Assembly: GCA_002070055.1 (NCBI GenBank)
Contig: MWCM01000001.1
Location: 16,308 to 80,307 of the forward strand
From: a bacterium ADurb.Bin212
Lineage (GTDB): Bacteria > Patescibacteriota > UBA1384 > XYA2-FULL-43-10
Length of the DNA: 64,000 nucleotides
Direction: 5' to 3'
Part shown: positions 1 to 31,760 of the stretch, piece after piece
How the letters are laid out: every line of letters starts with the position of its first letter
Position numbering within the stretch: position 1 is the first letter of the stretch
Program-made: the position numbers and the translations under genes
Notes under the pieces: model-generated
Database searches by the model: none
Told to the model about the DNA's origin: nothing
What the model saw: the letters and a program-made list of their open reading frames with translations, nothing else

Positions 1-327
1 AGTGAAAAGCGTCACATACATGCCATGCTCTGCGCACTGCTGCAGAAACCACATAGTTAGTTCCCGGTTGGCCGGCACGAACGGCTCGCCGGCGCCGGGG
101 ACGCCGATGGAATCGACGCCCATCTCCTTGGCCTCGTCGAGGATCTTCACGTAGTCATCGCGAGTCATCAGATCTTCGACGCGCAGCTTCTCCCCGCCAC
201 AGGCGTAGCAGTAGCTACATGCCAGGTTGCACCAGCCGGGGAATTCAATCCAAAGCGATTGCAAATTGCCGGTGTTCTTACGTTCGAGTCCGTGCTGAAC
301 CGCCTTTGCGCTAACATTCTTTTTCAT
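1..327 (-). CDS. radical SAM protein, N-terminal fragment (3' part outside window)
   Basis: Reverse-strand ORF starts at ATG 327 with an AGGAGA RBS. Translation MKKNVSAKAV...WCNLACSYCYACGG has the CxxxCxxC radical SAM cluster motif, followed by a GAGEP glycine-rich motif. GC-rich relative to the rest of the window. Confidence 0.6.
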   Translation of the reverse strand, partial: MKKNVSAKAVQHGLERKNTGNLQSLWIEFPGWCNLACSYCYACGGEKLRVEDLMTRDDYVKILDEAKEMGVDSIGVPGAGEPFVPANRELTMWFLQQCAEHGMYVTLFT

Positions 328-552
328 TTTGATATCTCCTGGTGCCCCATTTTGGGGCTTATTTTGTTAATGTCCCTCCCGATGATTGGTTTTAAAACCT
401 CTCATCGTGACAGCGCATTGTAACAGAATATTCACAAAATGTCCAGACCATATCACAACAACCAGACCTATTATAATAGCTAATATGAAGCTAATATTGA
501 CAAATTAAGCTAACATCATTACAATATGTGAAGAAAAATTAACAACAAAACT

Positions 553-1737
553 ATGGATAAAATTGTTGAAAAATTGGCGGGAATTGGTATTGAGGAAAAG
601 CCGGCAAGAGTATACTTGGCTACTCTTGAGATCGGTGGCGGCTTAGCCTCTGAGATTGCTCAAAAAGCCGGCATTGAGCGAACGCACACATATCATCTGC
701 TTGAACAGCTTATACGTGAGGGTCTAGTTTATCGTTCAGAAAAGGGCAATAAACTGATATTTATGGCACAAAGCCCTAAAAAGATCGGGCAGCTAATAGA
801 AAGCCGTCTAGAACAGGCCAAGAACCTTATTCCCGAGCTTTTAATGTTGGAAGGGTCAAATACCACCAAACCAAAGATTAAACTCTATGAGGGCATAGAG
901 GGGATAAAACAGCTGTTTGAGGAGACCTTAGACTTGCCGCGTGGCACAGAAACCTTGGCCTACTCTTCGGCAGAGTCAATTCATGATTATTTAAAAGAGT
1001 ATGTGCCACAGTATCTAAAGCGTCGTGTGCGCAAGGGCATCAGTCAGCGTGCAATCGCTGAGAACAGCGAAGAGGCAAGAGAACATCAAAAAATGGACGC
1101 AGAGGAGTCGCGCCAGACTAGGTTAGTTGATAGAAACAAATTTCCTTTCAAAAACGAGATCAATATATTTGGCAATAAGATTATGATCGCGTCATACCGA
1201 GATTTAATGGGCGTGATAATAGAGTCAAAAGAGATTGCTGACACCCAGCGCGCGATCTTTGAATTGGCATGGCTCGGCACTCGTGATGCAGATGGTAAAG
1301 TGCTCAATAAAGAGATAGCAGAAAATGAGCTAAGGAAGGTGGAAAAGATTCGCAAAACTACTCAAAAAGTGATATTCGAACATGATGGTAAAATTCTCAT
1401 GATGAAGGACACCAAAAATCACTGGGAGCTGCCTGGGGGCACGATTGATTTCGCAGAGGACGCTGATGTTGCATTGATGCGTGAATTAAAAGAGGAGATG
1501 GGGCTTGATCCACAGCAATATAATATTGAGAATATAATAGGCAACTTCAAGATTGTTAGAGAATTTCCGGATAAACATTATCATTTTTTAGTTTTGGTTT
1601 ATCGTGGCAAACTTAAAGTGGCTGATTTCCAAATTTCAAGTGAACACACCGAGTTTGGTTGGTTTACAATTCCCGAGATATTAGAGTTAGATATGGTGTC
1701 GGGTTATAAAGAGTTTTTTGCCAATATAACGTTGTGA
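553..1737 (+). CDS. TrmB-family HTH transcriptional regulator fused to a C-terminal Nudix hydrolase domain
   Basis: N-terminus matches TrmB-like wHTH (KPARVYLATLEIGGGLASEIAQKAGIERTHTYHLLEQLIREGLV). C-terminus carries a Nudix box (PGGTIDFAEDADVALMRELKEEMG). The middle segment (FPFKNEINIFGNKI...IIESKEIADTQRAIFELAW) is shared with the paralogs at 9412, 12331 and 25377. Confidence 0.65.
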   Translation: MDKIVEKLAGIGIEEKPARVYLATLEIGGGLASEIAQKAGIERTHTYHLLEQLIREGLVYRSEKGNKLIFMAQSPKKIGQLIESRLEQAKNLIPELLMLEGSNTTKPKIKLYEGIEGIKQLFEETLDLPRGTETLAYSSAESIHDYLKEYVPQYLKRRVRKGISQRAIAENSEEAREHQKMDAEESRQTRLVDRNKFPFKNEINIFGNKIMIASYRDLMGVIIESKEIADTQRAIFELAWLGTRDADGKVLNKEIAENELRKVEKIRKTTQKVIFEHDGKILMMKDTKNHWELPGGTIDFAEDADVALMRELKEEMGLDPQQYNIENIIGNFKIVREFPDKHYHFLVLVYRGKLKVADFQISSEHTEFGWFTIPEILELDMVSGYKEFFANITL

Positions 1738-1785
1738 TATATTAGATAAGGTCGACACCTTTTCAATTATCGCAGAAGGGATTTT

Positions 1786-2139
1786 ATGGATATAAATGAT
1801 CATAATACAACTGAGAATCTGGAAGAGAATACGAATACTCATATAGAGGCCCCTAAAGCTCGAAATGAATATAGTTTAAATGATCAAGTTGCGGAGATTT
1901 TTGCTTCTGAAATTATCAGTAGGTGCGAAGCCTTGCCAATAAATGATTCCATATCATTTACCTCCGGAACACCCATTACCGACAAAGCGGTCGGGATTAT
2001 TGATAAGCATTTTGATATAAATCAAGCTGGAGAGCCGATGGCCAAAGATCCATATATCGAGATTTTTAGAGGCGGCAAAGATATTCAAAAACGACGCCAT
2101 AAAATATTAAAAACCATCTATTATCGTAAGTTTTTATAA
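1786..2139 (+). CDS. hypothetical protein
   Basis: 117-aa ORF with no recognisable motif; host-like composition. Confidence 0.35.
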   Translation: MDINDHNTTENLEENTNTHIEAPKARNEYSLNDQVAEIFASEIISRCEALPINDSISFTSGTPITDKAVGIIDKHFDINQAGEPMAKDPYIEIFRGGKDIQKRRHKILKTIYYRKFL

Positions 2140-2228
2140 TTCTACTGACGAACTTAATTGTTATTTTTTGGAAGACATGGGGCTCTTTAATTTCTATAAA
2201 ATCTGGAATCAGCTGGAGTTAGAGGAAA

Positions 2229-2591
2229 ATGGATAAAACAAAAAACAAGACTACAGGAAGCGTGGGTGAGGATATCGCTACAGATTATTTGATCTCTAAA
2301 GGTTACAAGATCTTGCAGCGGAATTTGAGACTATTCTGTGGTGAAATCGATATTTTAGCGCAAGAGAATAGAACTCTAGTAATAGTGGAGGTAAAGACAG
2401 TGCGGGGTGCGGGATTCGGCTTGGCGCAGGATTTGGTGCGCTATAAGAAACAACAAAAACTGCGAAATTTAGCGAGGGCGATAGAACAGGAATACCCGAA
2501 CAGATCTATTAGAATCGATGTGGTTGGACTAGATTTAAGCAACCCTGAAGAGCCAAAAATAGAGCATTTAATAAATGCGGTTCAGGGATAA
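2229..2591 (+). CDS. YraN/UPF0102-family endonuclease
   Basis: 120 aa; DIATDYLISKGYKIL...EIDILA...LVIVEVKT pattern typical of the UPF0102 (YraN) PD-(D/E)xK-like family. Confidence 0.6.
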   Translation: MDKTKNKTTGSVGEDIATDYLISKGYKILQRNLRLFCGEIDILAQENRTLVIVEVKTVRGAGFGLAQDLVRYKKQQKLRNLARAIEQEYPNRSIRIDVVGLDLSNPEEPKIEHLINAVQG

Positions 2592-2745
2592 AAAAGTAAT
2601 AGTTACAATTAAAAAATTGGATGATTATCGTTTAAACTTTTGGCTTATTGTTTTTGGGTTTTAATTTATATTATGGCGCCAGGCGCCATTTTGTGCTAAT
2701 GTGACGGCTAGAGAGCGAATATCTTGCCGTCTTGGAGGTCGCACC

Positions 2746-3459
2746 ATGAAAGGCGTACTGTATTTTTCGATGCCGAAGTGGTTGGCGAAAGCCTGGCGGG
2801 AGATTTTTCCGCCAGGCGTACTGGACTGTTTCGCCAGGGGATGGAGGCTTGTGATGGCCATCGTTATCGTCATATTCGTGCTGGTGGTGGCTGCCCTCAT
2901 GTCCATCGTGCCGGCAGATGCGGATGAAGCTGCGCCGCTGAGCCTGCCGATGGCCCTCACCGAGATGGTCCGGCTTCACAATGCCGGACTACTGCTCGAC
3001 ATCACCTTGTCGAGTGAACAGTATGTGGGAGAGCTGTTGCCGGATTCGAGCTGGCGTTTTCGGCTCGAGGACGGTTGGCGGCCGTGCGCCGATGGTTTGG
3101 CGCGCTTTGTTAGGCTTGGTGGCAAGCTTCGAGCAGTTGAGCTTGTGCCACCTTCCTCGGTGATGGCAAGAGCCGGAGAGGTTAAGCCCGACACCAAGCT
3201 CTTCAGGCCAAGCAGCCTGGCAGTAGTGTCCCGCCAGTTTGCATCGGCACTGGTGCCGGAATCCCAACCTGAGCAGTGGAGTCTAGGGCTTTGCGTTGGT
3301 GTGCCCGCCGAGGGCAAGGCTACGATTCTGTTGCATAACTCTGGCCAAGGGCGGAGGCTGTTACTAACCTTGGTGGGAGTGTTGCGCGGCGACCAGCGCA
3401 AGATGGAGGTCGCCGGTTTCCGTATTGAGGAGGTGGAGAGCAAGCCCCGGCTGGAGTAA
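2746..3459 (+). CDS. hypothetical single-pass membrane protein (GC-rich island gene)
   Basis: Start chosen at ATG 2746 with a GGAGGT RBS; the track ORF begins at 2701. One TM helix (MAIVIVIFVLVVAALMSIV) then an Ala/Leu/Arg-rich soluble domain. About 60 % GC, far above neighbouring genes, and followed by a stem-loop plus T8 terminator. Confidence 0.45.
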   Translation: MKGVLYFSMPKWLAKAWREIFPPGVLDCFARGWRLVMAIVIVIFVLVVAALMSIVPADADEAAPLSLPMALTEMVRLHNAGLLLDITLSSEQYVGELLPDSSWRFRLEDGWRPCADGLARFVRLGGKLRAVELVPPSSVMARAGEVKPDTKLFRPSSLAVVSRQFASALVPESQPEQWSLGLCVGVPAEGKATILLHNSGQGRRLLLTLVGVLRGDQRKMEVAGFRIEEVESKPRLE

Positions 3460-3480
3460 TTCCGGTCGGGGTGTCGTTTT
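3447..3480 (+). terminator. rho-independent terminator-like hairpin plus T8
   Basis: ccccggctgg...ccggtcgggg stem followed by a tttttttt run, at the GC-rich/AT-rich junction. Confidence 0.4.
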
Positions 3481-3511
3481 TTTTATCAATTCATTGTGTT
3501 ATTATAGAGCT

Positions 3512-4915
3512 ATGATTAGAACCAGATACGCACCCAGTCCGACGGGTGACCCGCACATCGGCAACATCCGGACTGCTCTTTTTGAGTATTTGTTCGCCAG
3601 ATCACAAGGTGGTGAGTTTTTGTTGCGTATAGAAGACACCGATCGCGAACGTTTTGTAGAGGGCGGGGTTGAGCGTATTGTAGAATCTCTCAAATGGCTT
3701 GGCATTACGCCGGATAATATTGGCAATTTTCCCTATCAATCGGAGCGGCTTGAAGTATATAAAAAGCATGCCTTTGATTTGGTGCGTTCTGGCTACGCCT
3801 ACATTTGCACCTGTAGCAAGGAGAAGCTGGCGGCAGACCACGAGCATCAGGCCAAGGAAGGCAAACCGCCGCGTTACGAGGGGCATTGTCGCACCTCTGA
3901 ATTTAATCTCAAAGATCTAAAAGAGGGTTGCTATGTGATACGCATGAAAATGCCAGAGAATCGCAAAATTATTGTTAGCGATTTGATTAAGGGCAAAGTA
4001 GAATTTGATACATCGCTTCTAGACGATCAGATTATTCTTAAAAGCGACGGCTTTCCTACCTATCATTTAGCTGTGGTTGTAGATGATACTGAGATGGGTA
4101 TTACACACGTGATCCGTGGCGACGAATGGCTCTCATCTACCCCTAAACATCTTTTGCTTTATGAATATTTTGGTTGGGAATCACCGCAGTTTGCTCATCT
4201 GCCGGTGATACTTGGACCGGATAAAAAGAAATTGTCCAAACGTCACGGTGCTACGAGCGCGCTAGGCTATAAAGATTTAGGCTATCTGCCCGAGGCAATA
4301 ATTAACTTTATGGCACTTCTTGGCTGGAATCCAAAAGATGAGCGCGAGGAATTTACGCTTTCTGAGCTTGAAAAAGAGTTTAAAATAGAAAATGTTAATA
4401 AGGCGCCAGCGGTATTTGATATAGAAAAGCTAAATAGCATCAACGCTCAAAAGATCAAGGATCAAATATTAAAAATCAAAACGACAGATAATAAATCTAA
4501 ATATCTGGATACTTTCGGAGTCGATGGTCTTAGAGAGGGCGAGTTGGATCTAATTGGTCGCGGAGGTTATAATACTCTAAAAGAGGCGGCGGATTATATC
4601 AAGAAACTTAGAGCCGGATCAGATTATGCACCAGAGATGCTAATCTTCCGTAAGTCAGACAAAGAAAGAACGCTAACGGGGTTGCAAAATGCAAGAAGTA
4701 AAATGCAACAACTAAACAAATGGGAAAATGACGAAATTCAAAATGCCTTATTGCAGGTCGTAACTGAAAATCAGCTATCAAACGGTGATGTTTTTTGGCC
4801 GGTTCGTGTTGCACTCTCCGGTGAAGAAAAATCACCAAGCCCTGTGGAGCTGGCAGTTGCGCTGGGCAAAGAGGAAACGCTTAAACGGGTGGAAGGGGCC
4901 ATAGATAAGCTATAA
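3512..4915 (+). CDS. gltX: glutamyl-tRNA synthetase
   Basis: MIRTRYAPSPTGDPHIGNIRTALF contains the HIGH motif; KLSKR is the KMSKS motif; length fits a class I GluRS. Start moved to ATG 3512; the track ORF extends upstream into the GC-rich gene. Confidence 0.85.
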   Translation: MIRTRYAPSPTGDPHIGNIRTALFEYLFARSQGGEFLLRIEDTDRERFVEGGVERIVESLKWLGITPDNIGNFPYQSERLEVYKKHAFDLVRSGYAYICTCSKEKLAADHEHQAKEGKPPRYEGHCRTSEFNLKDLKEGCYVIRMKMPENRKIIVSDLIKGKVEFDTSLLDDQIILKSDGFPTYHLAVVVDDTEMGITHVIRGDEWLSSTPKHLLLYEYFGWESPQFAHLPVILGPDKKKLSKRHGATSALGYKDLGYLPEAIINFMALLGWNPKDEREEFTLSELEKEFKIENVNKAPAVFDIEKLNSINAQKIKDQILKIKTTDNKSKYLDTFGVDGLREGELDLIGRGGYNTLKEAADYIKKLRAGSDYAPEMLIFRKSDKERTLTGLQNARSKMQQLNKWENDEIQNALLQVVTENQLSNGDVFWPVRVALSGEEKSPSPVELAVALGKEETLKRVEGAIDKL

Positions 4916-4925
4916 GGAGACTGTT

Positions 4926-5924
4926 ATGTCAGAGGAAGAGAAGAAAGAAGGGATCGGCGGGATTCCGACCGAACTATTGCCATATGATGCCGGCAATGAT
5001 GATTTGGTTATGGGCAGGCAGGAAATAATGCTTGGGGAGGAAAGAGCCTGTGTTTTGGACGCATACACCAAAGCCGGCAAGCCAAATAGGCCGAACGAGG
5101 ATGCTTACGCCATAGTTCAAAGTGGAGCCCAAAAAGAGTTGCTGACAGCAGGTGTCTTCGATGGGATCTCCAGCGTAGTAGACCTGCCTGACTTAAAAGG
5201 TGTTAAAGGCGCCAGATTCGCTTCTCATTTTATAAGAATGCGCTTTTTAGAGTTGGCGGGCAACCCCGATATCGGTTTAAAGGATTTAATGATCGAGCTT
5301 AATCGTCTTCTTGGTGAGGCCAATTCCCAGCTTGAGGGGGCAGATTTTGACAAGCCAAGCACAGTTCCATCAACCACCGCTACCATGGTAAGAGTTAATA
5401 CTGTAGAAAACAAGATTGAAATCGCGGACTGTGCCGATTCGATATGCTTGGTATTTTATAAGGACGGGAGTTCGAAAGTGCTTTCTTTTGATACTAACCT
5501 ATTTCATATGGATGGTGGTCTTAAAAAAATTAGACCAGAGGAGTACAAACAAGCCAAAGATGAGGGAAGAAATGTGGCATGGGGTTTTGATAACAAAAAC
5601 AATCCCAAAGATGGTACTTATGGCACAGGAGCATTAAACGGTTCGGAGATGTTTGAGAGATACATTATGTCCGACCAAATAGATTTAGATGGTGTCGAGG
5701 CAATTTTCATGTCGTCTGACGGTATGTTGCCTCCGGATCTATCACAGTATGCCCCGGAAGATCGCAGGCAAATGCTACAAATTTTAAGGGAAGGTGGATG
5801 TGCGGCTTTAAAGGAAAGAGTCAACCAGGCATTTGAGTCTGGAGATCAAAGCAAATGGACGAGGCCATCGAGTCCAGATGATGCAACCGGAGTCTTTATT
5901 GATCTGAAACAAGTAACTGAATAG
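4926..5924 (+). CDS. PP2C-family protein serine/threonine phosphatase-like
   Basis: PNEDAYAI and VFDGISS motifs resemble the PP2C metal-binding motifs; 332 aa. Confidence 0.5.
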   Translation: MSEEEKKEGIGGIPTELLPYDAGNDDLVMGRQEIMLGEERACVLDAYTKAGKPNRPNEDAYAIVQSGAQKELLTAGVFDGISSVVDLPDLKGVKGARFASHFIRMRFLELAGNPDIGLKDLMIELNRLLGEANSQLEGADFDKPSTVPSTTATMVRVNTVENKIEIADCADSICLVFYKDGSSKVLSFDTNLFHMDGGLKKIRPEEYKQAKDEGRNVAWGFDNKNNPKDGTYGTGALNGSEMFERYIMSDQIDLDGVEAIFMSSDGMLPPDLSQYAPEDRRQMLQILREGGCAALKERVNQAFESGDQSKWTRPSSPDDATGVFIDLKQVTE

Positions 5925-5968
5925 AAACAATATTTGTTAAGCATTTTGATACATATAAAATCGGAGGG

Positions 5969-7105
5969 GTGTTGAGCAATCAACAATCAAAAATCAAATT
6001 AGTGCAAATTATTGCTGATTCTGATCTTTCTGGTGGCCCAAGACATGTTTTGGGTCTGCTTTCTAGCATAAACAGATCAAAATTCGAGTGTTTTTTGATA
6101 TGCCCAAACGGAAACTTATCTCGCGAAGCCAAAGAGATCTCTCGCCTTGAGGTAATTAATATCGAGATGAGTTCGAAGTTTGATTTGGTAGCCATGAGTT
6201 CCATAAACAAAATTCTGTCCCAGATACAATCTCAGAACAATCCATTTGGTCCCATGATAGTACATACTCATGGCACCAGAGCCGGCTTTCTGGGGCGGAT
6301 GTCTCTTCCAAAAGGAGTTTTGAGTGTTTACACAGAGCATCGTTGGGACGCTGACTATCATTTGGAAAATCGTATAAACGAGTGGCTACAACTATATTGG
6401 CTTAAGAGGCTAAATCAAAAAACTCATTTAATAATCGCTGTTTCGAACTCGGTTAGAGATTTTTTAATAAACAGAAAACTGGCTCCTGATGCGCGCATTA
6501 GGGTTATACATAATGGAATAGATTTACAAAATGCAAAAAGCAAAATGCAAAAAGCAAAAAATAGCAAAGGGAATCATTTTATTATCGGGAATGTGGGAAA
6601 TTTAAACCACCAAAAAGGTCATGAGTATTTGATAGAGGCAATGCCAGAGATTCTGGAACACTACCCTCATGCCATGCTAGAGATAATTGGTGAGGGCGAG
6701 GAAAGAAAAAATTTAGAATCTAAAATTCAAGATTTAAAATTGGAGAGACATGTAACTCTTTTGGGTAAACAAGTCGACCCGATGTCATTTATGGCCAAAT
6801 GGGATCTTTTTGTTCTGCCCTCTGTCGCCGAAACCTTTGGCATAGTGGTTTTGGAGGCGATGAGCCAAAAACTGCCGGTTGTGGCCACACAAGTCGGTGG
6901 AGTGCCGGATATTATTAAACACAATAAAAACGGTATTTTGGTGTCTCCGCACAGTCCTGAGTCGATTGCCGAAGCAACCATTGAACTTTTGTCTCGTCCG
7001 GCGAAGATGGAACAGCTCGCCCGCAACGCCTCCGACAGAGTAAAAGATTTTGATTGGAAAAAGATTGTGAGCAAAGTGGAAAGGGAATATCTAGAACTAA
7101 TTTAA
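5969..7105 (+). CDS. glycosyltransferase family 4 (GT-B)
   Basis: N-terminal KLVQIIADSDLSGGPRHVLGL and C-terminal EAMSQKLPVVATQVGGVPDIIKHNKNGILV are typical GT4 motifs. Confidence 0.75.
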   Translation: MLSNQQSKIKLVQIIADSDLSGGPRHVLGLLSSINRSKFECFLICPNGNLSREAKEISRLEVINIEMSSKFDLVAMSSINKILSQIQSQNNPFGPMIVHTHGTRAGFLGRMSLPKGVLSVYTEHRWDADYHLENRINEWLQLYWLKRLNQKTHLIIAVSNSVRDFLINRKLAPDARIRVIHNGIDLQNAKSKMQKAKNSKGNHFIIGNVGNLNHQKGHEYLIEAMPEILEHYPHAMLEIIGEGEERKNLESKIQDLKLERHVTLLGKQVDPMSFMAKWDLFVLPSVAETFGIVVLEAMSQKLPVVATQVGGVPDIIKHNKNGILVSPHSPESIAEATIELLSRPAKMEQLARNASDRVKDFDWKKIVSKVEREYLELI

Positions 7106-7564
7106 AATTTTCAATTTAAAATTTAAAATAAATGATAAAAACAAAAAATGGCAAATGATAAAAACAAATATGACTTAGAAGATAGAACGGAGAAGTTTGG
7201 AGAAGATATAATTAAGCTATGCAAAAAAATAAAAATTACTATTTATACTGAGCCACTTATTAAACAGCTTATAAGGTCTGGCACAAGCGTCGGTGCAAAT
7301 TACATGGAAGCAAACGGAGCCTGTTCCAAAAAAGACTTCTGCAATAAAATATACATTTGTAAAAAAGAATCACAGGAGAGCAAACACTGGTTAAAGATGC
7401 TTATATCCGCTACATGTAATCATCACGATGAGATTAGTCAACTATTGGGCGAGGCACAGCAACTATCTATGATTTTTCATAAAATATCTTCATCAAGCAA
7501 AATTAATCATTAAGCATTTTAAATTAGAGATTTATTTTAAATTCTAAATTTTAAATTGAAAATT
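7106..7564. mobile_element. small TIR-flanked cassette carrying a four-helix-bundle gene
   Basis: Left arm 7106-7129 (aattttcaatttaaaatttaaaat) and the reverse complement of right arm 7541-7564 (aattttcaatttaaaatttagaat) match at 23 of 24 positions. The cassette exactly fills the gap between the GT4 stop and the next gene start. Confidence 0.5.
7148..7513 (+). CDS. four-helix-bundle protein (23S rRNA intervening-sequence protein family, TIGR02436-like)
   Basis: 121 aa; LIRSGTSVGANYMEA and downstream KDF...HWLKML resemble the motifs of the S23-ribosomal/four-helix-bundle family. Confidence 0.6.
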   Translation: MANDKNKYDLEDRTEKFGEDIIKLCKKIKITIYTEPLIKQLIRSGTSVGANYMEANGACSKKDFCNKIYICKKESQESKHWLKMLISATCNHHDEISQLLGEAQQLSMIFHKISSSSKINH

Positions 7565-7571
7565 ATTATTT

Positions 7572-8285
7572 ATGCTTTACGTAAATAAATTCAAAAATTC
7601 CGAACTTGTTCACTCTTCCACCCGCACACATCTTAAGGTGGAGGTTTTACGAAGTGTTCATGCCGAGAGGGTTTTGGTGCTCGCGCCTCATCCGGATGAT
7701 GACGTTTTTGGTTGTGGCGCATTGCTTCATCATCTGAGCTTAAACAAAGCTCATATTAAAAGTCTCGTTTTTTGTGGCGGATCCTTAGGCAACAATAATG
7801 GAGTCAGAGATTTGGATTTGGTTGCGACTCGCGAAAAAGAAGCTGTGAGCGCCTTGCGTGAAGTTGGCGCAGGAGAGGCAAATTTTCTGCGATACGGTGA
7901 TTTGAAGTTGGGCGAACATGATAATTTGTGGGAAAAAATTTATCACGAATTTCAAGTGTTCAAACCTGATTTGGTTTTAATGCCCGACGGAAATGATTGG
8001 AACGAAGATCATGTTGCAGTGTATAGTTCTGCTTTATTGGCTCAGCGCAAAATAAAGAAGGGAAAGCCTGCTATATGGGGATATTTTGTCTGGGGAATAA
8101 ACAGGCCTAGCTATTTATTTCCTTATAATGCGGGCACCAAAAACATTAAGATGTCGGCTATGGCCTGCCATAAAAGTCAGCTTAAAGTTAAAAGATACGA
8201 TGAAGCGATAATAGGTATGAACGAATACCTCGGCAAAGGCCTAGGCCTCGAGCATTTGGCGGAGGGATATAGGGAAATTTTCTGA
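7572..8285 (+). CDS. PIG-L/LmbE-family deacetylase
   Basis: LVLAPHPDDDVFGCGALL matches the zinc-binding HPDDE-type motif of PIG-L N-acetylglucosaminyl deacetylases. Confidence 0.7.
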   Translation: MLYVNKFKNSELVHSSTRTHLKVEVLRSVHAERVLVLAPHPDDDVFGCGALLHHLSLNKAHIKSLVFCGGSLGNNNGVRDLDLVATREKEAVSALREVGAGEANFLRYGDLKLGEHDNLWEKIYHEFQVFKPDLVLMPDGNDWNEDHVAVYSSALLAQRKIKKGKPAIWGYFVWGINRPSYLFPYNAGTKNIKMSAMACHKSQLKVKRYDEAIIGMNEYLGKGLGLEHLAEGYREIF

Positions 8286-8385
8286 CGAAAATTTCAATGC
8301 CAAATTTTTAAATCATTCTTTCTAATAAAATAAGCTTTTATCATTTCTAATTAGTAAAAAACTGAAATAAATCTCTTCAGTTATA

Positions 8386-8420
8386 AAAAAGCCCCCTCCT
8401 GAATGTATCAGGCAGGGGGC
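8386..8420 (-). terminator. rho-independent terminator of the GC-rich two-gene module
   Basis: The minus strand reads CCCCCTGCCTGATACATTCAGGAGGGGG then TTTTTT, immediately 3' of the stop at 8431. Confidence 0.7.
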
Positions 8421-8430
8421 GGGTTTTGGT

Positions 8431-8775
8431 TTACCGACCGGTGGCAAACCATGCGCGCACCAGCTCGGCTGCCAGGGCGCAGCCTTCCGGCTCGCAATGG
8501 CAGGTGACAGCCATGCGCTGGTGGGTACGGTCGATGATGACGATCCGATCGGGGTAGATCGCAATCTCATCGAAAGCCACCTCGTTGCCCTCCGGGTACT
8601 CGCGCCACCACGACTTGACTTCGGTCTCATTCAGCCAACCTCCCCAGTCGTCAGGGACACCGATGGCGTCCTGGTATCTCTGACCACCTACCCAGACCTC
8701 GTCGTCCGCGCAAGGGCTGTCACAGAGGTCACTTACGAACCCGCAGAACCGAAGTGCAGCGATCAGATTGAGCAT
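8431..8775 (-). CDS. hypothetical protein (GC-rich island, distal gene of pair)
   Basis: 114 aa, Trp/acidic-rich (DDWGGWLNETEVKSWWREYPEG); GCAGGAGAC RBS; about 62 % GC. Confidence 0.45.
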   Translation of the reverse strand: MLNLIAALRFCGFVSDLCDSPCADDEVWVGGQRYQDAIGVPDDWGGWLNETEVKSWWREYPEGNEVAFDEIAIYPDRIVIIDRTHQRMAVTCHCEPEGCALAAELVRAWFATGR

Positions 8776-8896
8776 ATTAGTCTCCTGCGTTTATGGCTCG
8801 CCAGCCTTAGGTTGTGAATGTTCGAGGCTAAACCTCGGAGGAGGGTGCGATCAGTTACGATCGTACCCGGTCCATCTGAGGTGAGTAGCTTTTTGG

Positions 8897-9160
8897 CTAC
8901 TCGGGTGGGAGGGTGCCGTGTTCGGCGAAGTAAGTGATAAGCTCAATAACCCGTTGGTGATTAAGAGCCGCCTCCTCTTCGCTGTCGGCGATATGTTCGA
9001 GGTTGTTGGTGTAGTCAAGCTCTTCGTTGATCCCTGGTCCGAACGCCATTGTCTCGTAATGGTTGCGATCGGTCGGGAGAACAGTGGAAACGAGGTATTC
9101 GTTTCCGTTGATGAACAGCTTGTTGCGGAAGACGCGAACTGTCTCAGAGCGAAATTTCAT
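8897..9160 (-). CDS. hypothetical protein (GC-rich island, proximal gene of pair)
   Basis: 87 aa with an AGGTGAG RBS; same strand as the 114-aa ORF 120 bp downstream, so probably co-transcribed. Confidence 0.45.
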   Translation of the reverse strand: MKFRSETVRVFRNKLFINGNEYLVSTVLPTDRNHYETMAFGPGINEELDYTNNLEHIADSEEEAALNHQRVIELITYFAEHGTLPPE

Positions 9161-9411
9161 TTATCTCACCTATTTGTTGTCATTGCCTTACGATGTTTCC
9201 GGCGCAAGCCGCTGTTTCATCGTAACGAAGCATTATAACATAACATCATAGAAGTGTCAACGATAACGACACAAATACTAAAAACAATATTAAAAACAAT
9301 CAGGCTTGACAAGAGGCTAGGAAGTGTGGTAAAATAAAGTAAAGTGACGAAGTATACGACACTAATGATAGTTAAAAGTTCATAAAGTTACTAAAGTGAA
9401 AAGTAGGTCGA

Positions 9412-10185
9412 GTGGAAACGAAAGAGCTGTTAGAAAATCTGGGCTTGGACGAGCGGGAGAGTGAGATATATCTGGCTCTGCTTGAGCTTGGGCCACAGTT
9501 ACCGCAATATATTGCGCGCAATACCGGCATTAAGCGCACGACGCTGTATGAGATATTTCCCGAAATGATCAAAAAAGGCCTGATAGTCGAAATTGCGCAA
9601 GGTAAAAGACGACTGTTCCAAGCTGTGAGCCCGGATAAGCTCTTTAATGACTACGAGAGGAAGTATAAGGAGATCAAGGCCAATATCACCGACCTGACTG
9701 CGATTTATCGGCTACAAGGCCTAAGGCCGAAAATAGAGGTATATGAGGGCTTTGACGGTATGAAAAAGTTCTATAATTATACTCTCGAGAGCAAAGAGGT
9801 GTGTAAATGTTTTGTACAACCGGCAAAATACAATCCACGCGTACTAGATTGGCTAGTTAAGGAGTACGTGCCTGCCAGAGTCAAGCGGGGAGTGCTAGTG
9901 AAGGCGATCATGCCCGATGACGATCTAAGTGAATACTATATGGGATTTAGAAAAGAGCATCTAAGAATAGGCAGAAAAGTTCCAATCTCAAAGTTCCATT
10001 TCAAAATTGAGGGTATGATCCAAGGAAATAGAGTCTATTTTGCCAATTACGAAAAGGGAGGGCCCCAGATTGGCATCATTATCGAGTCTAAACAGATTGC
10101 CGATACATTGAGTGCGCTTTGGGACTTAGCGTGGGAGGGGGCGCAAGGTTATGGCAAGAAAGACCAGCAAAATCACTCTTGTTAA
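9412..10185 (+). CDS. TrmB-family transcriptional regulator (paralog 2)
   Basis: N-terminal wHTH (SEIYLALLELGPQLPQYIARNTGIKRTTLYEIFPEMIKKGLI) and a C-terminal IIESKQIADT...LAWEG segment shared with the other paralogs; GTG start. Confidence 0.65.
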   Translation: METKELLENLGLDERESEIYLALLELGPQLPQYIARNTGIKRTTLYEIFPEMIKKGLIVEIAQGKRRLFQAVSPDKLFNDYERKYKEIKANITDLTAIYRLQGLRPKIEVYEGFDGMKKFYNYTLESKEVCKCFVQPAKYNPRVLDWLVKEYVPARVKRGVLVKAIMPDDDLSEYYMGFRKEHLRIGRKVPISKFHFKIEGMIQGNRVYFANYEKGGPQIGIIIESKQIADTLSALWDLAWEGAQGYGKKDQQNHSC

Positions 10186-17760: not shown

Positions 17761-17860
17761 ACAAAAAAATCCCTCCTGCAAAAATTATATCATAGTCGCG
17801 AGCAAATAGAGTGTGAATAAGTTTGTTTATACAAAAAAAGACAACGCGGTTGTCATTTTT

Positions 17861-17886
17861 CATGGTTCCGAGACTAGGAGTCGAAC
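17861..17886 (-). repeat. direct duplicate of the 3' end (T-arm and acceptor) of tRNA-Gln
   Basis: catggttccgagactaggagtcgaac is identical at 17861-17886 and 18015-18040. The 17861 copy has no matching 5' acceptor strand, so it is not an intact tRNA. Confidence 0.7.
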
Positions 17887-17988: not shown

Positions 17989-18014
17989 AAGATCATCTTA
18001 CGATGATCCCTTTT
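17989..18014. terminator. bidirectional hairpin terminator
   Basis: aaaaaaaGATCATCttacGATGATCcctttt: a 7-bp stem flanked by an A-run and a T-run. Confidence 0.5.
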
Positions 18015-18016
18015 CA

Positions 18017-18090
18017 TGGTTCCGAGACTAGGAGTCGAACCTAGATTGGCGGTGCCAGAAACCGCTGTCCTGCCATTAGACGATCTCGGA
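18017..18090 (-). tRNA. tRNA-Gln (anticodon CUG)
   Basis: The reverse complement folds as a cloverleaf: acceptor TCCGAGA/TCTCGGA, D-arm GTCT..GGAC, anticodon stem GCGGT/ACCGC with loop TTCTGGC (U33, CUG, G37), T-arm CTAGG-TTCGACT-CCTAG, and an encoded CCA. Confidence 0.75.
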
Positions 18091-20185: not shown

Positions 20186-21610
20186 ATGTGCTTAACAATA
20201 CCGGGAAAAATTAAATCGATTAAAGACGGCGTGGCGACAGTCGAAAATGGTTCCAGAACCGAGCAGATTGAGCTTGGAGTAGTTTTTGATGCCAAAGTAG
20301 GGGATTGGGTGCTTTATGCCACAAATCGCGCCGTGAGACTGATAGATGAGCAGGAGGCGCGTGAGATTATTGAGCTTCTTGAAGATAATTATCAACCGGT
20401 GGATATTGCTTCTCTACCGTTGAGGTATAAAAAGATTGTTTATAAAGTGAGAAACACTGAGAAAAATCAAAATATCAATTTAAAATCAAAAAATATTATT
20501 AATAGCAATTTAACAATCCAGCAATTTAACAATATTCACAAGAGCGATCTCGAATATCTACTACAGTTGAGAGGTAAAAATAATCTTGAAGCCTTTTACA
20601 GTGAGGCTAATGTCTTGCGTAAGAACATAATTAAAGACTTCGTCTGCATACACGGCATTGTAGAATTTTCTAACTATTGCAAGAATTGCTGTCTTTATTG
20701 CGGTATAGGGAGCAAAGCTAAAATACGACGTTATCGTATGACTTCCGACGAAATATTCATGGCAGTCGAACAGGCGGTCGAATTTGATGGTTATAAATTG
20801 GTGGTTTTGCAAAGTGGAGAGGACGATTATTATAGCGATGACGAGCTCGTGTCATTGATAGATAGGATCAAAAAAGATTTAAGAGTTTTTGTCTTCATTT
20901 CGGTGGGAGAGCGGTCTAAAAACTTTTATAAAAGAGCATTCGAAGCGGGGGCAAGCGGCTCACTTTTTCGTTTTGAAACCTCGAATCCGGAGTTATATAG
21001 CCGAATGCATCCGAATCATGATTTACAAAGCAGACTCGAATCTATACAAATGCAAATCGAGATTGGATATTATTTGGCAAGTGGTGGTTTAATCGGCTTA
21101 CCAGGTCAGACTATCTCTGATATGGCAGATGATCTTTTGTTGGTGAAGAAACTTCGGATTCCAATGTTGTCGAGTGGACCCTGGATTCCAAGTTTGACTA
21201 GCCCGCTTGGAATAATAACCAATAACCAAGGCACAAGAAACAAACAAATTCCAAACGGTGTCATTGCGAGGGACGAAGCAATCTTTAACAATTTAGCAAT
21301 AAAACAATTTAGCAATAATGAAAAATTGCGTCTGACTCTTAACTATATCGCGGCGGCGCGCTTTTTAATGCCGGAGATCAAAATTCCTGTGACTACAGCT
21401 TTGGAAACATTAGACCAAGAGAGCGGACGACACAAAGCCTTGTTGGCCGGTGCCAACGCCTTAATGTTTAATATTACTCCGGAAAAATACCGAGGCGATT
21501 ATAATTTATACGATCATAAATATATAGAACGGGAGAAAGTTTGGCAAAAATACGGGCTCTTTAAAGGAGAGGAGAGTTACGAGATGCTAGAAGATAGGTT
21601 AAAGATCTAA
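20186..21610 (+). CDS. HypC/HupF-like N-terminal domain fused to a BioB/HydE/PylB-type radical SAM domain
   Basis: N-terminus MCLTIPGKIKSIKDGVATV...VGDWVL matches the HypC MCLxIP signature. Downstream, NYCKNCCLYCGIG is a CxxxCxxC motif in the C(K/R)NNCxYCG style of BioB/HydE/PylB, and GGLIGLPGQT is a family-like glycine motif. Contains two in-frame repeat-derived inserts (20506-20533; 21224-21318). Confidence 0.55.
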   Translation: MCLTIPGKIKSIKDGVATVENGSRTEQIELGVVFDAKVGDWVLYATNRAVRLIDEQEAREIIELLEDNYQPVDIASLPLRYKKIVYKVRNTEKNQNINLKSKNIINSNLTIQQFNNIHKSDLEYLLQLRGKNNLEAFYSEANVLRKNIIKDFVCIHGIVEFSNYCKNCCLYCGIGSKAKIRRYRMTSDEIFMAVEQAVEFDGYKLVVLQSGEDDYYSDDELVSLIDRIKKDLRVFVFISVGERSKNFYKRAFEAGASGSLFRFETSNPELYSRMHPNHDLQSRLESIQMQIEIGYYLASGGLIGLPGQTISDMADDLLLVKKLRIPMLSSGPWIPSLTSPLGIITNNQGTRNKQIPNGVIARDEAIFNNLAIKQFSNNEKLRLTLNYIAAARFLMPEIKIPVTTALETLDQESGRHKALLAGANALMFNITPEKYRGDYNLYDHKYIEREKVWQKYGLFKGEESYEMLEDRLKI

Positions 21611-21616
21611 ATACGG

Positions 21617-21645
21617 CAAACCCGCCGCGTTCAGCGGCGGGTTTG
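21617..21645. terminator. bidirectional terminator hairpin
   Basis: caaaCCCGCCGCgttcagGCGGCGGGtttg. The stop codon of the minus-strand GC-rich ORF lies in the loop. Confidence 0.65.
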
Positions 21646-22395
21646 TGCTCTTGTGTCTGCTCTCACAACCTCCACCCTTACTTCGCCTACTTTGGCCAGC
21701 GAGTAGGGTAGGGGCGTTACCAGTGTCACGGGCGGCTTTAGGCCCAGCGCGTGACTTGTTAGGTCAAAGCGCTTTACGGACTCGCAGCCCTGCATGTGGC
21801 GCTGAAGAGCTCGGCGTGAGCAGGTTGCCAACTCCTCTTTAAGGTCGAATGACCCTTTTCGTGTCCAGAGGTAGTCGGCAATCTCGGCCAACTCGGTACC
21901 CTTGGGTGGGATGAGGCGTAGCTCCAGCCTGCAGTGCAGGAAGGCTGAACCTCTGGCGATACTACAGCGCAGAGGCAGACTTAACCTAGACGGTAGGCGA
22001 TAGACCTTGCCATAACCCAAGCCCTCCATGATCTGTGCAACCTGCGGGTCCAGGCTGTGGCTTGTGGTTCCACCCGTGTACTCTACTGTGGCGTAGCTTT
22101 CTCTTGCGGTCTGCACCACAATGAAGCGCTTGACCCCGGCGTCACGCAGGGCCAGGTGCTGGCTGCGTCTGGCTACTTCGGCGATCATACCGCCGAGGCT
22201 GGAAACAACTCGCCATAACAGCCAGAATGCGACAACGCCAAACCCCACTCTCTGCCATGTTGCAATCGCCAGCAGTGCCGTGAAGACACCGAAGACGATA
22301 TTATTGCACAGGGTAATAAACCTCACGACGCCCGCAGCCGTCTTGAGGTGATTGAAGGCAGAAACCCTCAGTTCGTCCAAACCGTGATTCTCCAA
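21631..22395 (-). CDS. hypothetical two-TM membrane protein with an Arg-rich cytoplasmic domain (GC-rich island)
   Basis: Start reassigned to TTG 22395, 8 nt after an AAAGGAGG RBS and downstream of a TTTACA-17-TATATT promoter-like sequence. The track ORF extends into AT-rich upstream DNA. Two TM helices, then a roughly 170-aa domain with no motif I recognise. About 60 % GC. Confidence 0.4.
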   Translation of the reverse strand: MENHGLDELRVSAFNHLKTAAGVVRFITLCNNIVFGVFTALLAIATWQRVGFGVVAFWLLWRVVSSLGGMIAEVARRSQHLALRDAGVKRFIVVQTARESYATVEYTGGTTSHSLDPQVAQIMEGLGYGKVYRLPSRLSLPLRCSIARGSAFLHCRLELRLIPPKGTELAEIADYLWTRKGSFDLKEELATCSRRALQRHMQGCESVKRFDLTSHALGLKPPVTLVTPLPYSLAKVGEVRVEVVRADTRAQTRR

Positions 22396-22482
22396 GGCTT
22401 TCGCCTCCTTTGCAGTATTGATCGGACGTATGAATATAACATAAAAGATACAACTTGTAAATAGTCTGATGCTCAATTGCAC

Positions 22483-22521
22483 ACAGCAAAACTCCCGCAA
22501 TAGAATTTTGCGGGAGTTTTG
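22483..22521. terminator. perfect 13-bp hairpin (AAAACTCCCGCAA/TTGCGGGAGTTTT), bidirectional terminator
   Basis: Sits between the methyltransferase stop (22546) and the island gene's promoter region. Confidence 0.6.
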
Positions 22522-22545
22522 AAAATAGTCATTAGTGAACTCTTG

Positions 22546-24516: not shown

Positions 24517-24586
24517 GGTATCTCCTTAAAAATTAATCATAAGGCGAGGCTCGAGCGGTAAAGCTGCTCGAGCCCGGCTCTTACGA

Positions 24587-25126
24587 TTACCAGCTTAGCT
24601 GGTAGTCAATACCTCCTTCCCAGCTCCCTTCGGAGCGGAAGTTGTGGTGGTACCAGGCGCCGAAGCGCCCGTTGGTGAAGCTTGGTCCCACCCACCATTC
24701 GGGCTTTCCGCCTTCTTTTACGCGGAAGTGACCCGTGAGGGCGAGGCCCTCGGCGAGCGGCACGGCCGGGGTGGACACGTCCACCCATGTTGGTGCGTCT
24801 CCGAGGCCAGCCAGTACCAAGACCTAAGACTTGGTGCTGCCACCACCGAGGCCAAACTGCAGCCCGGGGCGGAGCCAGAGGTTGTCGTCGCGGCGGACTA
24901 CGGCTTTGAGCCCGTCGCCAACTGCGATCTTAGCGATGGTCAGGTCGTAGCCGCTGTGGACGTCACGCTCCTGATAGAGCGTGAGGGCGCCAGTGTTGAC
25001 GCAGACATATGGTGCGACGTAGTCGTCCATGGCGAAGACGCCAGTGGAAACGGTCACGTCGGCGGCGTGGACAGCGGTGAGGCTGGTGAGGATCACGGTG
25101 ATGGCGACGACGATAGTGGTTTTCAT
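24587..25126 (-). pseudogene. outer-membrane beta-barrel (OMP) family gene interrupted by an in-frame TAG
   Basis: AAAGGAGG RBS, then MKTTIVVAITVILTSLTAVHA (signal peptide) followed by an alternating beta-strand pattern. An in-frame TAG sits at 24824-24826 (...GGGSTKS*VLVLAG...). The C-terminus ends ...GIDYQLSW (aromatic terminal residue, as in OMPs). About 60 % GC. A 9-bp perfect hairpin terminator lies at 24553-24579. Confidence 0.5.
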
Positions 25127-25376
25127 TTCGTCGGCCTCCTTTGCGTAAGCCCGCCGGCATGATTTGCCCGAAGCGGGCATTTTGTGAAACTTCAAGGGTT
25201 GTTACACCCTCAGAGATGGAATCTAACGTGCGGATTAGATGCCATCTCTTAAGGTGTATATTGTTAATGTTTGGTCTTGCATGGTGGAACGGCCTAGTGT
25301 ATCATATAAACAAAGAGTGGCAAATAAGACCACAGGGCGGTAAATACCACCATATATTCTAAAACGAGGCTAGAAC

Positions 25377-26126
25377 ATGAAATATTACCAGATTTTTGAG
25401 AAATTTGGACTGGCAAAAAATGAAGCAATTATATACGAAACTCTGCTTAATGAGGGGGAGAGCAATGTGGCGAATATTTCTGTTAAGTCAAAAATACATC
25501 GCAGAAATGTTTACGATTCTTTAAATCGGCTCATTGAGAAAGGTCTAGTGTTCGAGATATTACAGAGCAGAGAAAACATATATAAAGCGGTGGATCCGGA
25601 TAAATTTTCGCAGATGTTGGCGGAAAAACAGAAAGAGTTAGATAAAATTATGCCCCAGCTTAAAAATATTTATCAAAATAAGCCTCATGCTCAGGAGGTT
25701 TATATTTACAAAGGCTTAGAGGGATACAAAAATTACATGAGAGACATTTTGCGACTAGGCCAAGACGATTATATTTTAGGGGGCAAAGGCCTTTGGGCGG
25801 ATCCTAAAATAATCAGTTACACCGAGCAGTTCATGAAAGAAGCTAAAAAGCTTGGCATCAAATTTCATATCATTTATGATGAAGAGGTAAAAAAATCTAA
25901 GCATAAAATTGCCTCTTTTATTGGCGGCAGCTATCGTTTTTTACCGGAGAAATACTTTACCAACTGTTCCATGGAGATATTTGCCGATAGGGTCGTGATT
26001 CTTTCTGATATAGGCAGACACGGCGAGATGGATGAGAATTCTGTCCACACGGTAATTATTAATCGACAGGTAGCGGATGCCATGAGAACTTGGTGGAAGG
26101 CACTGTGGGGCATTGCAAAAGAATAA
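25377..26126 (+). CDS. TrmB-family transcriptional regulator (paralog 4)
   Basis: wHTH (NEAIIYETLLNEGESNVANISVKSKIHRRNVYDSLNRLIEKGLV) and the same overall architecture as the other three paralogs. Confidence 0.6.
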   Translation: MKYYQIFEKFGLAKNEAIIYETLLNEGESNVANISVKSKIHRRNVYDSLNRLIEKGLVFEILQSRENIYKAVDPDKFSQMLAEKQKELDKIMPQLKNIYQNKPHAQEVYIYKGLEGYKNYMRDILRLGQDDYILGGKGLWADPKIISYTEQFMKEAKKLGIKFHIIYDEEVKKSKHKIASFIGGSYRFLPEKYFTNCSMEIFADRVVILSDIGRHGEMDENSVHTVIINRQVADAMRTWWKALWGIAKE

Positions 26127-31757: not shown

Positions 31758-31760
31758 GTT

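Follow-up and report, generated by a model that had tools for sequence, protein, structure and literature searches.

GC-rich, position-conserved gene islands in a narrow lineage of AT-rich Patescibacteria

Introduction

We analyzed a stretch of 64,000 nucleotides (hereafter the window; positions 16,308 to 80,307 of contig MWCM01000001.1, assembly GCA_002070055.1) from the metagenome-assembled genome (MAG) bacterium ADurb.Bin212, in which short GC-rich islands of one or two small genes are embedded in AT-rich DNA (window GC of 41.4%). A preliminary description, made from the sequence alone, had counted seven such islands and attributed them to repeated horizontal acquisition from high-GC donors or to chimeric assembly. 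Comparison with related genomes leads us to prefer, at roughly even odds, a reading in which the islands comprise flexible genes that are confined to one clade, move between its lineages by recombination, and keep to a separate GC-rich equilibrium.

The window belongs to the 100.8-kb contig L009 (contigs of relatives are cited below by similar handles), whose proteins are listed at NCBI as OQB066xx and which is also deposited as GCA_022705445.1. Its gene content – many TrmB-family regulators, type IV pilus genes, a split PolA and small genes – and the labels of close relatives point to an affiliation with the Patescibacteria, or candidate phyla radiation (CPR). The only close relatives among GTDB species representatives are L016 and L017, both labelled "Candidatus Saccharibacteria" MAGs, and the next-best gltX in that set is 46% identical. 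Other contigs of relatives came from Logan DRR381268 (L003, L010), JGI 3300044603 (L006, L012, L096), and SRR25572339 and SRR22315504 (L004, L005). L004–L006, L012, and L096 represent a relative more distant than the DRR381268 strain, and L014 is the most distant (the outgroup) among the genomes compared at the first island. The lineage is thinly sampled, with one to five sequences per 90% cluster, and is best read as one narrow Patescibacteria/CPR group from anaerobic digesters. Our literature searches returned no account of the bacterium ADurb.Bin212 MAG or of GC-rich islets in Patescibacteria.

Results

The islands are compositionally distinct and protein-coding

Maximal-scoring GC segments were located in the window and compared with two nulls: the background with islands removed (maximum score 21.8) and 20-bp block shuffles (maximum 21.3). 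For islands 1–4 and a radical SAM gene fragment at the window edge, the segments closely match the extents originally proposed, and the fragment's foreign composition is borne out (Table 1). The count of seven islands reduces to four strong ones and two borderline cases at 55 and 60 kb. The remaining candidate, 46541–46810, is a native DUF5320 gene (a full-length PF17253 match whose 60 bits exceed the cutoff of 27) and does not count as an island, because its third-codon-position GC (GC3) is a native 0.40 and its GC is supplied by glycine codons.

Core genes have a GC3 of 0.399 ± 0.038 (n = 42). Island genes, the one at 60644–60889 (0.73) among them, lie at 0.65–0.80, which is 6–10 standard deviations above the core, and no further GC3-outlier gene was found anywhere in the 64-kb window. 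In the called frames of island genes GC3 exceeds GC1, which exceeds GC2. Their proteins are depleted in lysine, isoleucine, and asparagine, with usage shifted to GC-rich codons, and codon usage is itself heterogeneous (island 1 is rich in G and island 4 in C at third positions). The islands are thus, as first described, foreign-looking accessory genes with their own expression signals.

Substitution patterns identify the island open reading frames (ORFs) as real, constrained protein-coding genes. The ratio of nonsynonymous to synonymous divergence (dN/dS) of island 3 is 0.19 in the called frame; none of the five remaining frames is below 0.33. For island genes 1, 2a, 2b, and 4 it is 0.12–0.27 (0.16 for island 1 against L004, 0.12 for gene 2a against its L096 orthologue, 0.20 for island 4), compared to 0.01–0.06 in most core genes compared; one core gene, at 28936, is an exception (dN/dS 0.21, GC3 0.37). 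Relative to most of the core, island genes evolve at three to ten times the rate. Conservation at the protein level extends down to 30–40% identity, where the DNA is unalignable.

Table 1. Coordinates of GC segments, genes, and expression signals in the window. aa, amino acids; SD, Shine-Dalgarno sequence; TM, transmembrane.
Feature	Position	Strand	Properties
Island 1 segment	2675–3476		GC 59.5%; score 80.0
Island 2 segment	8391–9151		GC 57.2%; score 58.3
Island 3 segment	21614–22408		GC 58.0%; score 67.5
Island 4 segment	24543–25178		GC 63.1%; score 86.2
Window-edge radical SAM segment	22–311		GC 60%; score 30.4
55-kb segment	55163–55497		Score 22.2; no better than background on raw GC
60-kb segment	60681–60941		Score 22.8; no better than background on raw GC
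46-kb segment	46565–46724		Score 21.8; no better than background on raw GC
Radical SAM/SPASM gene, 5' part	1–327	-	GC3 0.72; divergent from TrmB-NUDIX gene 553–1737
Promoter, radical SAM gene	445–417		TGGACA-17-TACAAT, sigma70-like
Palindrome ATGGCGCC-A-GGCGCCAT, then TTTT	2673–2689	+	Intrinsic terminator of upstream UPF0102 gene
Island 1 promoter-like motif TTGTGCTAATGTGACGG	2691–2707	+	Extended -10 type; putative role
Island 1 gene	2746–3459	+	237 aa; GC3 0.68; SD GGAGGT at 2734–2739
Island 1 terminator	3444–3482	+	13-pair stem over stop codon, then T-run
Bidirectional terminator	8391–8420		GC-rich hairpin flanked by A-/T-runs, -28 kcal/mol; ends PIG-L (+) and gene 2a (-)
Island gene 2a	8431–8775	-	114 aa; acidic; 6 Cys; no TM segment; ORFan; GC3 0.73
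Island gene 2b	8897–9160	-	87 aa; acidic; GC3 0.66; divergent from TrmB gene 9412
Promoter, gene 2b	9260–9232		TTGACA-17-TATAAT, perfect (12/12)
Island 3 hairpin	21616–21646		12-bp perfect hairpin over stop codon; terminator shared with convergent radical SAM gene 20186–21610
Island 3 gene	21631–22395	-	254 aa; GC3 0.65; TTG start after AAGGAGG
Promoter, island 3 gene	22461–22433		TTTACA-17-TATATT
Island 4 3' hairpin GGCTCGAGC...GCTCGAGCC	24548–24574	-	Within longer -33 kcal/mol stem
Island 4 gene	24587–25126	-	GC3 0.73–0.80; divergent from TrmB gene 25377
Gly-rich DUF5320 gene	46550–46810	+	Native, not an island; Pfam PF17253, E = 5.2e-16; GC3 0.40
Weak island 5 gene	55216–55482	-	88 aa; acidic; between polA and holA; GC3 only 0.52
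Island 6 gene	60644–60889	+	81 aa; 3 Cys; SD AGGAGGT; GC3 0.73

The original characterization of the products as small membrane or acidic proteins is correct. Island 1 encodes one N-terminal TM helix followed by a domain of ~180 aa; the island 3 protein has a hydrophobic N-terminal region (~2 TM segments) and a conserved C-terminal domain; the island 4 protein has a signal peptide and a beta-rich domain of ~155 aa that ends in YQLSW. Searches of the island proteins against Pfam, NCBIfam, PHROGs, and PADLOC matched only the DUF5320 gene (46550–46810) and the radical SAM fragment (1–327). The suggestion that the islands carry defence or anti-defence cargo found no support, with PADLOC and PHROGs empty for the ORFan proteins.

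The full radical SAM product is 379 aa long (L009 8636–9775) and matches the Pfam families Radical_SAM and SPASM; the 109-aa fragment within the window scores above cutoff for Fer4_12 and contains the motif CNLACSYCYAC. A radical SAM core with CxxxCxxC and a C-terminal SPASM domain place it among radical SAM/SPASM peptide-maturase-like proteins. NCBIfam maturase matches are weak and equivalog models all fall far under their cutoffs, so no specific subfamily is assigned. This island is missing in the relative L001, and a donor for it was sought and not identified.

In the window, the island 4 gene contains an in-frame TAG (24824–24826, minus strand) that in a codon alignment corresponds to CAA (Gln) in L003 and GGT in L008; the L003 orthologue is intact (178 aa). 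Compared with L003, the gene is 100% identical 3' of the TAG and 59–83% identical 5' of it, and the change falls ~10 nt from this stop codon. This pattern suggests a nonsense allele at a recombination (or strain-consensus) breakpoint. Recoding of TAG was rejected as unsupported: the case is single, the codon is CAA or GGT in relatives, and no suppressor tRNA turned up.

The islands occupy the same slots in related genomes

Relatives of the island proteins are few, each family numbering two to six proteins out of billions, and all of those with readable context belong to the same lineage and nearly always to the same slot. A word-indexed search of 5.8 billion protein clusters returned only one to three relatives for islands 1, 3, and 4, and an exhaustive profile search of 1.84 billion representatives gave four island 1 matches in all, two of them new. 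Scans of IMG/VR with the island proteins found no relatives; nothing was found among PLSDB plasmids (tblastn) or in scans of JGI metagenome contigs with the island 1 alignment and the radical SAM protein. Across all searches of the ORFan island proteins, no homologue was found in other kinds of genomes, in viruses, or on plasmids.

The island 1 family has six to seven members, and every one with readable flanks lies between the UPF0102 gene and gltX. This slot 1 arrangement is seen in the window, L001/L016, L004–L006, and L013; L014 and L017 share it, with the UPF0102 side read from its 3' end or ORF translation and not from a Pfam call. Overall, six genome types besides that of the window have the gene directly 5' of gltX, and wherever the opposite flank is readable it shows UPF0102 or the 3' end of that gene. 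The slot 1 protein of L001 is only marginally similar to that of island 1 (BLASTP E = 0.15), and its homology rests on position, topology, and an RLHxxGLL motif. In L096 and L010 the neighbours of island 2 are the PIG-L and TrmB genes; those of island 3 in L003 and L012 are a methyltransferase gene and the radical SAM gene 20186. Island 4 has a divergent TrmB-like partner in L008 as well, although the gene on its other side is a different one. The three relatives of island 3 have identities of 85, 76, and 63%.

Between them, L003 and L010 cover islands 1–4, and L004–L006, L012, and L096 carry islands 1, 2, and 3. Window positions 1–9695 are 99.6–99.9% identical to L010 straight across islands 1 and 2. 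For 55216–55482 and 60644–60889, only same-strain copies were seen. Homologues thus stand at the same loci in related AT-rich genomes for islands 1, 2, 3, and 4, the observation named at the outset as one that would refute a foreign origin; together with the lack of any donor-side homologue, it counts against repeated recent acquisition from high-GC donors. Of the marks of a classical genomic island, a composition deviating from the host was found (in GC3 and segment scores); absence from the relatives' locus with a homologue in a donor was not, for islands 1–4.

Slot 2, between PIG-L and TrmB (8.3–9.2 kb), holds unrelated GC-rich small genes in L001 and L013. The proposal that the islands are accessory genes is supported, and in at least this slot the cargo differs, without homology, from relative to relative.

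The GC-rich composition persists across deep divergence

Acquired genes are expected to ameliorate toward host composition. We compared GC3 between orthologous island genes. Family members have a GC3 of 0.57–0.74 next to flanks of 0.28–0.45, the exception being L014 (0.45 vs 0.40). Core genes are saturated in synonymous divergence (dS) against L096, at 1.4–2.8. Gene 2a has a dS of 1.44 to its L096 orthologue and a GC3 of 0.74 and 0.62 in the two lineages; island 1 has a dS of 1.1 to L004, with 0.68 and 0.67; and island 4 has a dS of 1.39 between L003 and L008, with 0.73 and 0.62. Under a Hasegawa-Kishino-Yano model, decay toward a GC3 of 0.40 from an ancestor at 0.75 would give 0.52–0.56, and the observed values need an ancestor at ~1.0.

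Polarized substitutions agree with this picture. Pooled over islands 3 and 1, changes from strong to weak base pairs (S>W) and the reverse (W>S) number 86:69 at all sites (p = 0.004), a S>W fraction of 0.555 compared to 0.67 expected at host equilibrium, and 49:34 at third positions (p = 0.001). The equilibrium GC implied by these changes is 0.53–0.58; a core control gave 11:13 at 40% GC. Values of dS above 1 and parsimony polarization with distant outgroups are imprecise, and the core control comprises only 24 changes, so these persistence estimates are rough, yet all point one way. The GC-richness of the islands is best read as inherited, long-standing, and near its own equilibrium (~53–58% GC) and not as the fading mark of an import.

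Each island is a transcription unit with host-type signals

Each island consists of one or two genes organized as one transcription unit with a promoter, a long SD-containing 5' untranslated region, and a hairpin terminator. The promoters are of the host sigma70 type and lie in the AT-rich flank; GC-rich DNA starts just downstream and stops at the terminator. In island 1, the extended -10-like motif has the core TTGTGCTAATGT (2691–2702), and GC-rich sequence begins ~25 nt downstream of it. The same motif precedes every slot 1 allele in the window, L001, L004, L007, and L013, with a variant in L014.

The claim of strong SD sequences is borne out. A match of at least 5 nt precedes 7/8 island genes and 5/29 core genes (Fisher p = 5e-4), though core starts were taken from an uncurated ORF list and the core deficit is possibly overstated. 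A -10-like TATTAT lies 7 nt ahead of the gltX ATG (start 3512), and TGTGATAAT boxes take its place in relatives. This placement suggests that the gltX mRNA is leaderless. The core genes as a whole are probably leaderless in part.

The islands had also been credited with GC-rich terminators of their own. Hairpins do lie 3' of the island genes, with T-runs after those at 3459, 8431, and 55216 (the last at ~55167–55188), and the island 3 hairpin satisfied the T-tail rule of our terminator scan; after the genes at 24587 and 60889 there is no clear T-run. Two perfect palindromes had been placed at island junctions. The one at 2673–2689 is exact, whereas the arms of the second are at 24548–24556 and 24566–24574 and not at 24553–24579. 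Neither is a border or scar of insertion: the first is the terminator of the UPF0102 gene and the second the 3' hairpin of the island 4 gene. The hairpin at 2673–2689 keeps its position in L001, L004, L013, and L014 despite changed sequence, and the second accompanies the island 4 gene at another locus in L008. Local hairpins inside the islands show no evident excess over core genes.

All three TrmB-family genes of the window (553–1737, 9412–10185, and 25377–26126) are divergent from a GC-rich island gene: the first from the radical SAM gene, the second from gene 2b, and the third from island 4. By rough estimate, this arrangement has a chance of ~1e-3. The pairing recurs in L001, L013, and L008, including cases in which the island gene is not a homologue. 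Control of the island cassettes by TrmB-type regulators is a possibility.

A 39-nt imperfect inverted repeat (60535–60573 and 61060–61098, 82% complementary) brackets the gene at 60644–60889. A motif of ~40–58 nt, GAGARCACCACCACAGA...ATCTGTG, occurs inverted at 60535–60573 before this gene and directly at 61058–61115 and 61642–61699. The direct copies precede rpsO (61156) and the gene at 61783, and no Rfam family matches. The third copy lies 5' of the next gene, and a regulatory motif fits as well as a miniature inverted-repeat transposable element or terminal inverted repeat; the motif may serve these genes in common as a leader or operator, or else be a small repeat element.

The islands are sites of recombination

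Divergence of island 1 does not track that of the adjacent gltX. L001 is 94% identical in gltX and 34% in the slot 1 protein (over 102 aligned residues); for L004 the values are 87% and 74%. At slot 2, a recently exchanged block at ~8750–9330 that contains gene 2b and both promoters is 92–100% identical to L096 with a dS of 0.09, compared to 76–81% identity in the core flanks and a dS above 1.4 in the flanking core genes. Identity to L003 flips between 100% and 60–90% at ~22400, 24810 (inside island 4), and 25200. Recombination thus occurs at the islands. In the L003 comparison over 21300–36150, blocks of 99–100% alternate with blocks of 80–90% outside the islands too (e.g., 26100–26700 and 27100–29400). 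Populations of the lineage recombine extensively.

Other features in and near the window

The gene at 7148–7513 (PF05635, the '23S rRNA intervening sequence' four-helix bundle) is flanked by 42-nt AT-rich inverted repeats (7098–7139 and 7531–7572). The element 7098–7572 is precisely absent from L010, which is otherwise 99.6–99.9% identical, a pattern that suggests a small mobile insertion. The 3' part of tRNA-Gln (18017–18090, minus strand) has an exact 30-nt duplicate (17857–17886 and 18011–18040, 154 bp apart), which may be a remnant of integration or excision at the tRNA gene.

About 5 kb upstream of the window (L009 4400–5350; L001 5001–5600), a stretch of 0.6–0.95 kb with 52–65% GC lies between rpmA (L27) and rplS (L19). 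It is partly conserved between L009 and L001 (tblastx), with no convincing long ORF and no Rfam match, and could hold tiny Cys-rich ORFs or an undescribed RNA. AT-rich repeat families of 38–42 nt (AACAATTTAACAAT... and AATAACCAAG...ACAAACAAATTC) occur at 20496–20533, 21214–21324, 53114–53151, 53448–53493, 54867–54908, and 61454–61495, near the 3' parts of the ORFs 20186–21610 and 52670–53794 and of polA, and also downstream of rpsO.

Discussion

A proposed flexible gene pool with its own GC-rich equilibrium

The islands are coding, clade-restricted, conserved in position, and persistent in composition. The explanation we prefer (at a probability of about 50%) is that they are clade-restricted flexible genes that are exchanged by recombination and held at a GC-rich equilibrium of their own. 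On this account, the islands would occupy fixed intergenic slots as part of the flexible gene pool of a narrow CPR lineage, and homologous recombination in the conserved flanks would let lineages swap or replace them, with DNA of relatives probably taken up by the type IV pilus/competence machinery whose genes lie in the window. Host-type promoters would drive SD-led genes for small, fast-evolving, clade-only proteins: islands 1 and 3 are predicted to specify membrane-anchored products, island 4 a secreted one, and 2a, 2b, 5, and 6 small acidic proteins of the cytoplasm. Upkeep of high GC might come from GC-biased repair tied to recombination, from selection acting on codons or mRNA, or from a hidden GC-rich reservoir. 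We infer a cell-envelope or host-contact role for the membrane and secreted products; it stays an inference because no family or fold is assignable.

Several points weigh against this explanation. The foreign dialect of the islands (GC-rich codons, depletion of lysine, isoleucine, and asparagine, use of SD sequences) is what a GC-rich donor would predict. Because the lineage is thinly sampled, a GC-rich reservoir could itself be unsampled. The non-homologous slot 2 genes in L001 and L013 mean that insertion or replacement is needed beyond the exchange of alleles, and the difference in codon usage between islands (G or C at third positions) is not obviously predicted by one uniform process. The limits given above for the core SD deficit and the persistence estimates count here as well. 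As to function, AlphaFold2 models of island 4 (pLDDT confidence 30, two sequences) and island 1 (pLDDT 51, three sequences) were both unusable, and a Foldseek search of the island 1 model against the PDB gave a best match of E = 0.15, which is not significant.

Alternative explanations

It is possible, if somewhat unlikely, that the islands are a subset of accessory genes that sit at a second, GC-rich equilibrium (GC3 of ~0.6–0.75 vs 0.4) through a gene-local process with no foreign donor. Candidate processes would be very strong recombination-linked GC-biased repair at hypervariable loci that are often exchanged, or selection for GC-rich, highly structured, SD-led mRNAs that encode surface or host-contact proteins.

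Recent, repeated horizontal acquisition from high-GC donors, with genes that have not yet drifted to host composition, strikes us as improbable. The extreme GC3 and the accompanying shift in amino-acid usage are what it predicts, as are SD-led translation in a genome whose core is mostly without SD sequences, the heterogeneity of codon usage among islands, the unrelated cargo between PIG-L and TrmB in L001 and L013, and the missing radical SAM island of L001. Yet no donor-side homologue of any ORFan island protein appeared in 5.8 billion clusters, 1.84 billion representatives, IMG/VR, or PLSDB, and same-slot orthologues are still GC-rich in relatives whose core dS is saturated. Passive decay cannot yield the observed GC3, and substitutions are near balance. 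In addition, the promoters are host-type and conserved, and the islands have no integrase, transposase, or shared att-like repeats.

A sharper form of our preferred reading, in which a gene-specific GC-biasing process both creates the islands and keeps them in place, is about as doubtful as recent import. Its leading candidate is biased gene conversion, through GC-biased repair of heteroduplexes at hot spots of recombination; otherwise it would be selection for GC-rich mRNA or codons. The coincidence of islands with recombination mosaics and breakpoints speaks for it, as do the implied equilibrium GC of 0.53–0.58 rather than 0.40 and the slot 1 gene of L014, where a GC3 of only 0.45 indicates that enrichment is lineage-dependent for one gene. 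The coding regions of islands 1 and 4 (island 3 less so) also fold more strongly than the core, with z-scores of -2.5 to -3.8 compared to a core mean of ~-0.7, measured against dinucleotide shuffles that ignore codon structure. But the effect, +0.25–0.35 in GC3, is far above what bacterial reports of biased gene conversion are said to describe; genes of the window that recombine or evolve fast outside the islands are not GC-rich, as the native-like GC3 of the fast-evolving gene at 28936 shows; and the folding excess is equal on the antisense strand and so not RNA-specific.

That the islands are non-coding, structured GC-rich RNAs, with long ORFs produced by stop-poor GC-rich DNA, is very improbable. 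Each island does contain several overlapping ORFs on both strands, and whole transcripts have a fold z-score of ~-4. However, Rfam at gathering thresholds gave only the two tRNAs of the window, the coding signal is clear in dN/dS and in codon-position GC, and SD sequences with start codons, TM helices, a signal peptide, and protein conservation beyond DNA alignability are all present. One core gene reaches a fold z-score of -2.8. Because it is equal on sense and antisense strands, the folding excess is not evidence of functional RNA, and we treat it as a DNA-level or compositional effect.

Least probable of all, and already refuted for islands 1–4, is that assembly or binning joined GC-rich fragments of other organisms into an AT-rich contig: the sharp compositional steps and the in-frame stop with abrupt identity change inside island 4 would fit, but the islands are not chimeras because independent assemblies of at least four other samples (DRR381268, 3300044603, SRR25572339, and SRR22315504) repeat them in identical order and between identical flanks, L010 is near-identical across islands 1 and 2, and island borders coincide with promoters and terminators and not with random points.

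Comparison with known systems

Flexible ('replacement') genomic islands of marine and halophilic bacteria and archaea are hypervariable, occupy equivalent positions, and are swapped through conserved flanks. The islands described here are a small-scale, GC-rich variant of these. They share fixed slots between core genes, occupied by divergent alleles (slot 1) or unrelated genes (slot 2), mosaic identity with breakpoints at the islands, and several envelope-exposed products. They differ in comprising one or two genes (0.3–0.8 kb) and not multi-gene glycosylation clusters, in being persistently GC-rich within an AT-rich genome, and in each having a promoter, SD sequence, and terminator of its own.

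In models of the Lawrence-Ochman type, acquired ORFans or 'genomic islets' of atypical composition ameliorate to the host, and acquired ORFans are usually AT-richer than it. Our islands resemble them in being short, lineage-specific, deviant in GC3 and amino-acid usage, and faster-evolving than the core. Unlike them, they are GC-richer than the host, show no decay across a dS of 1.1–1.4, and have position-conserved orthologues; no mobility genes or att repeats were found. Specifically, Pfam, PHROGs, and NCBIfam detected no integrase, transposase, or recombinase in island ORFs or flanking genes, and no att-like or attC-like repeat is common to island borders. The inverted repeat around 60644–60889 is the sole border-repeat exception, and both tRNA genes (18017–18090 and 26825–26899) lie away from the borders. 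Two further mobile or diversifying systems were rejected. Integron cassettes do not fit scattered islands with their own promoters, no shared attC-like repeat, and no integrase among the genes scanned. The target of a diversity-generating retroelement does not fit whole-gene divergence with no repeat pair at the islands and no reverse transcriptase among the genes scanned.

GC-biased gene conversion in recombining bacterial genes was reportedly described by Lassalle and colleagues in 2015. Our islands are similar in that GC3 is raised where recombination is evident and the balance lies above genome-average GC, and dissimilar in that the increase is 25–35 GC3 points, where bacterial effects are reported at a few percent, and confined to single genes. 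Klein, Misulovin, and Eddy are said to have described, in 2002, GC-rich islands of non-coding RNA in AT-rich genomes of (hyper)thermophiles. In both cases GC rises abruptly over a few hundred bases of an otherwise AT-rich chromosome; the islands described here are protein-coding and match no Rfam family.

Implications

Composition is the standard cue for calling horizontal gene transfer and, through amelioration, for dating it. In the window this cue is strong, yet the genes keep their positions, occur in this clade alone, and show no decay over synonymous divergence that is saturated. If our reading is correct, composition-based calls of horizontal transfer in CPR/Patescibacteria would mislead for this class of gene, and these loci would offer a natural test of biased gene conversion against GC selection in bacteria. 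The contrast between SD-led islands and a largely SD-less core further suggests two modes of translation initiation in one genome. For this uncultured and probably host-dependent lineage, the islands point to the proteins that vary most, are exposed on the envelope, and probably face the host.

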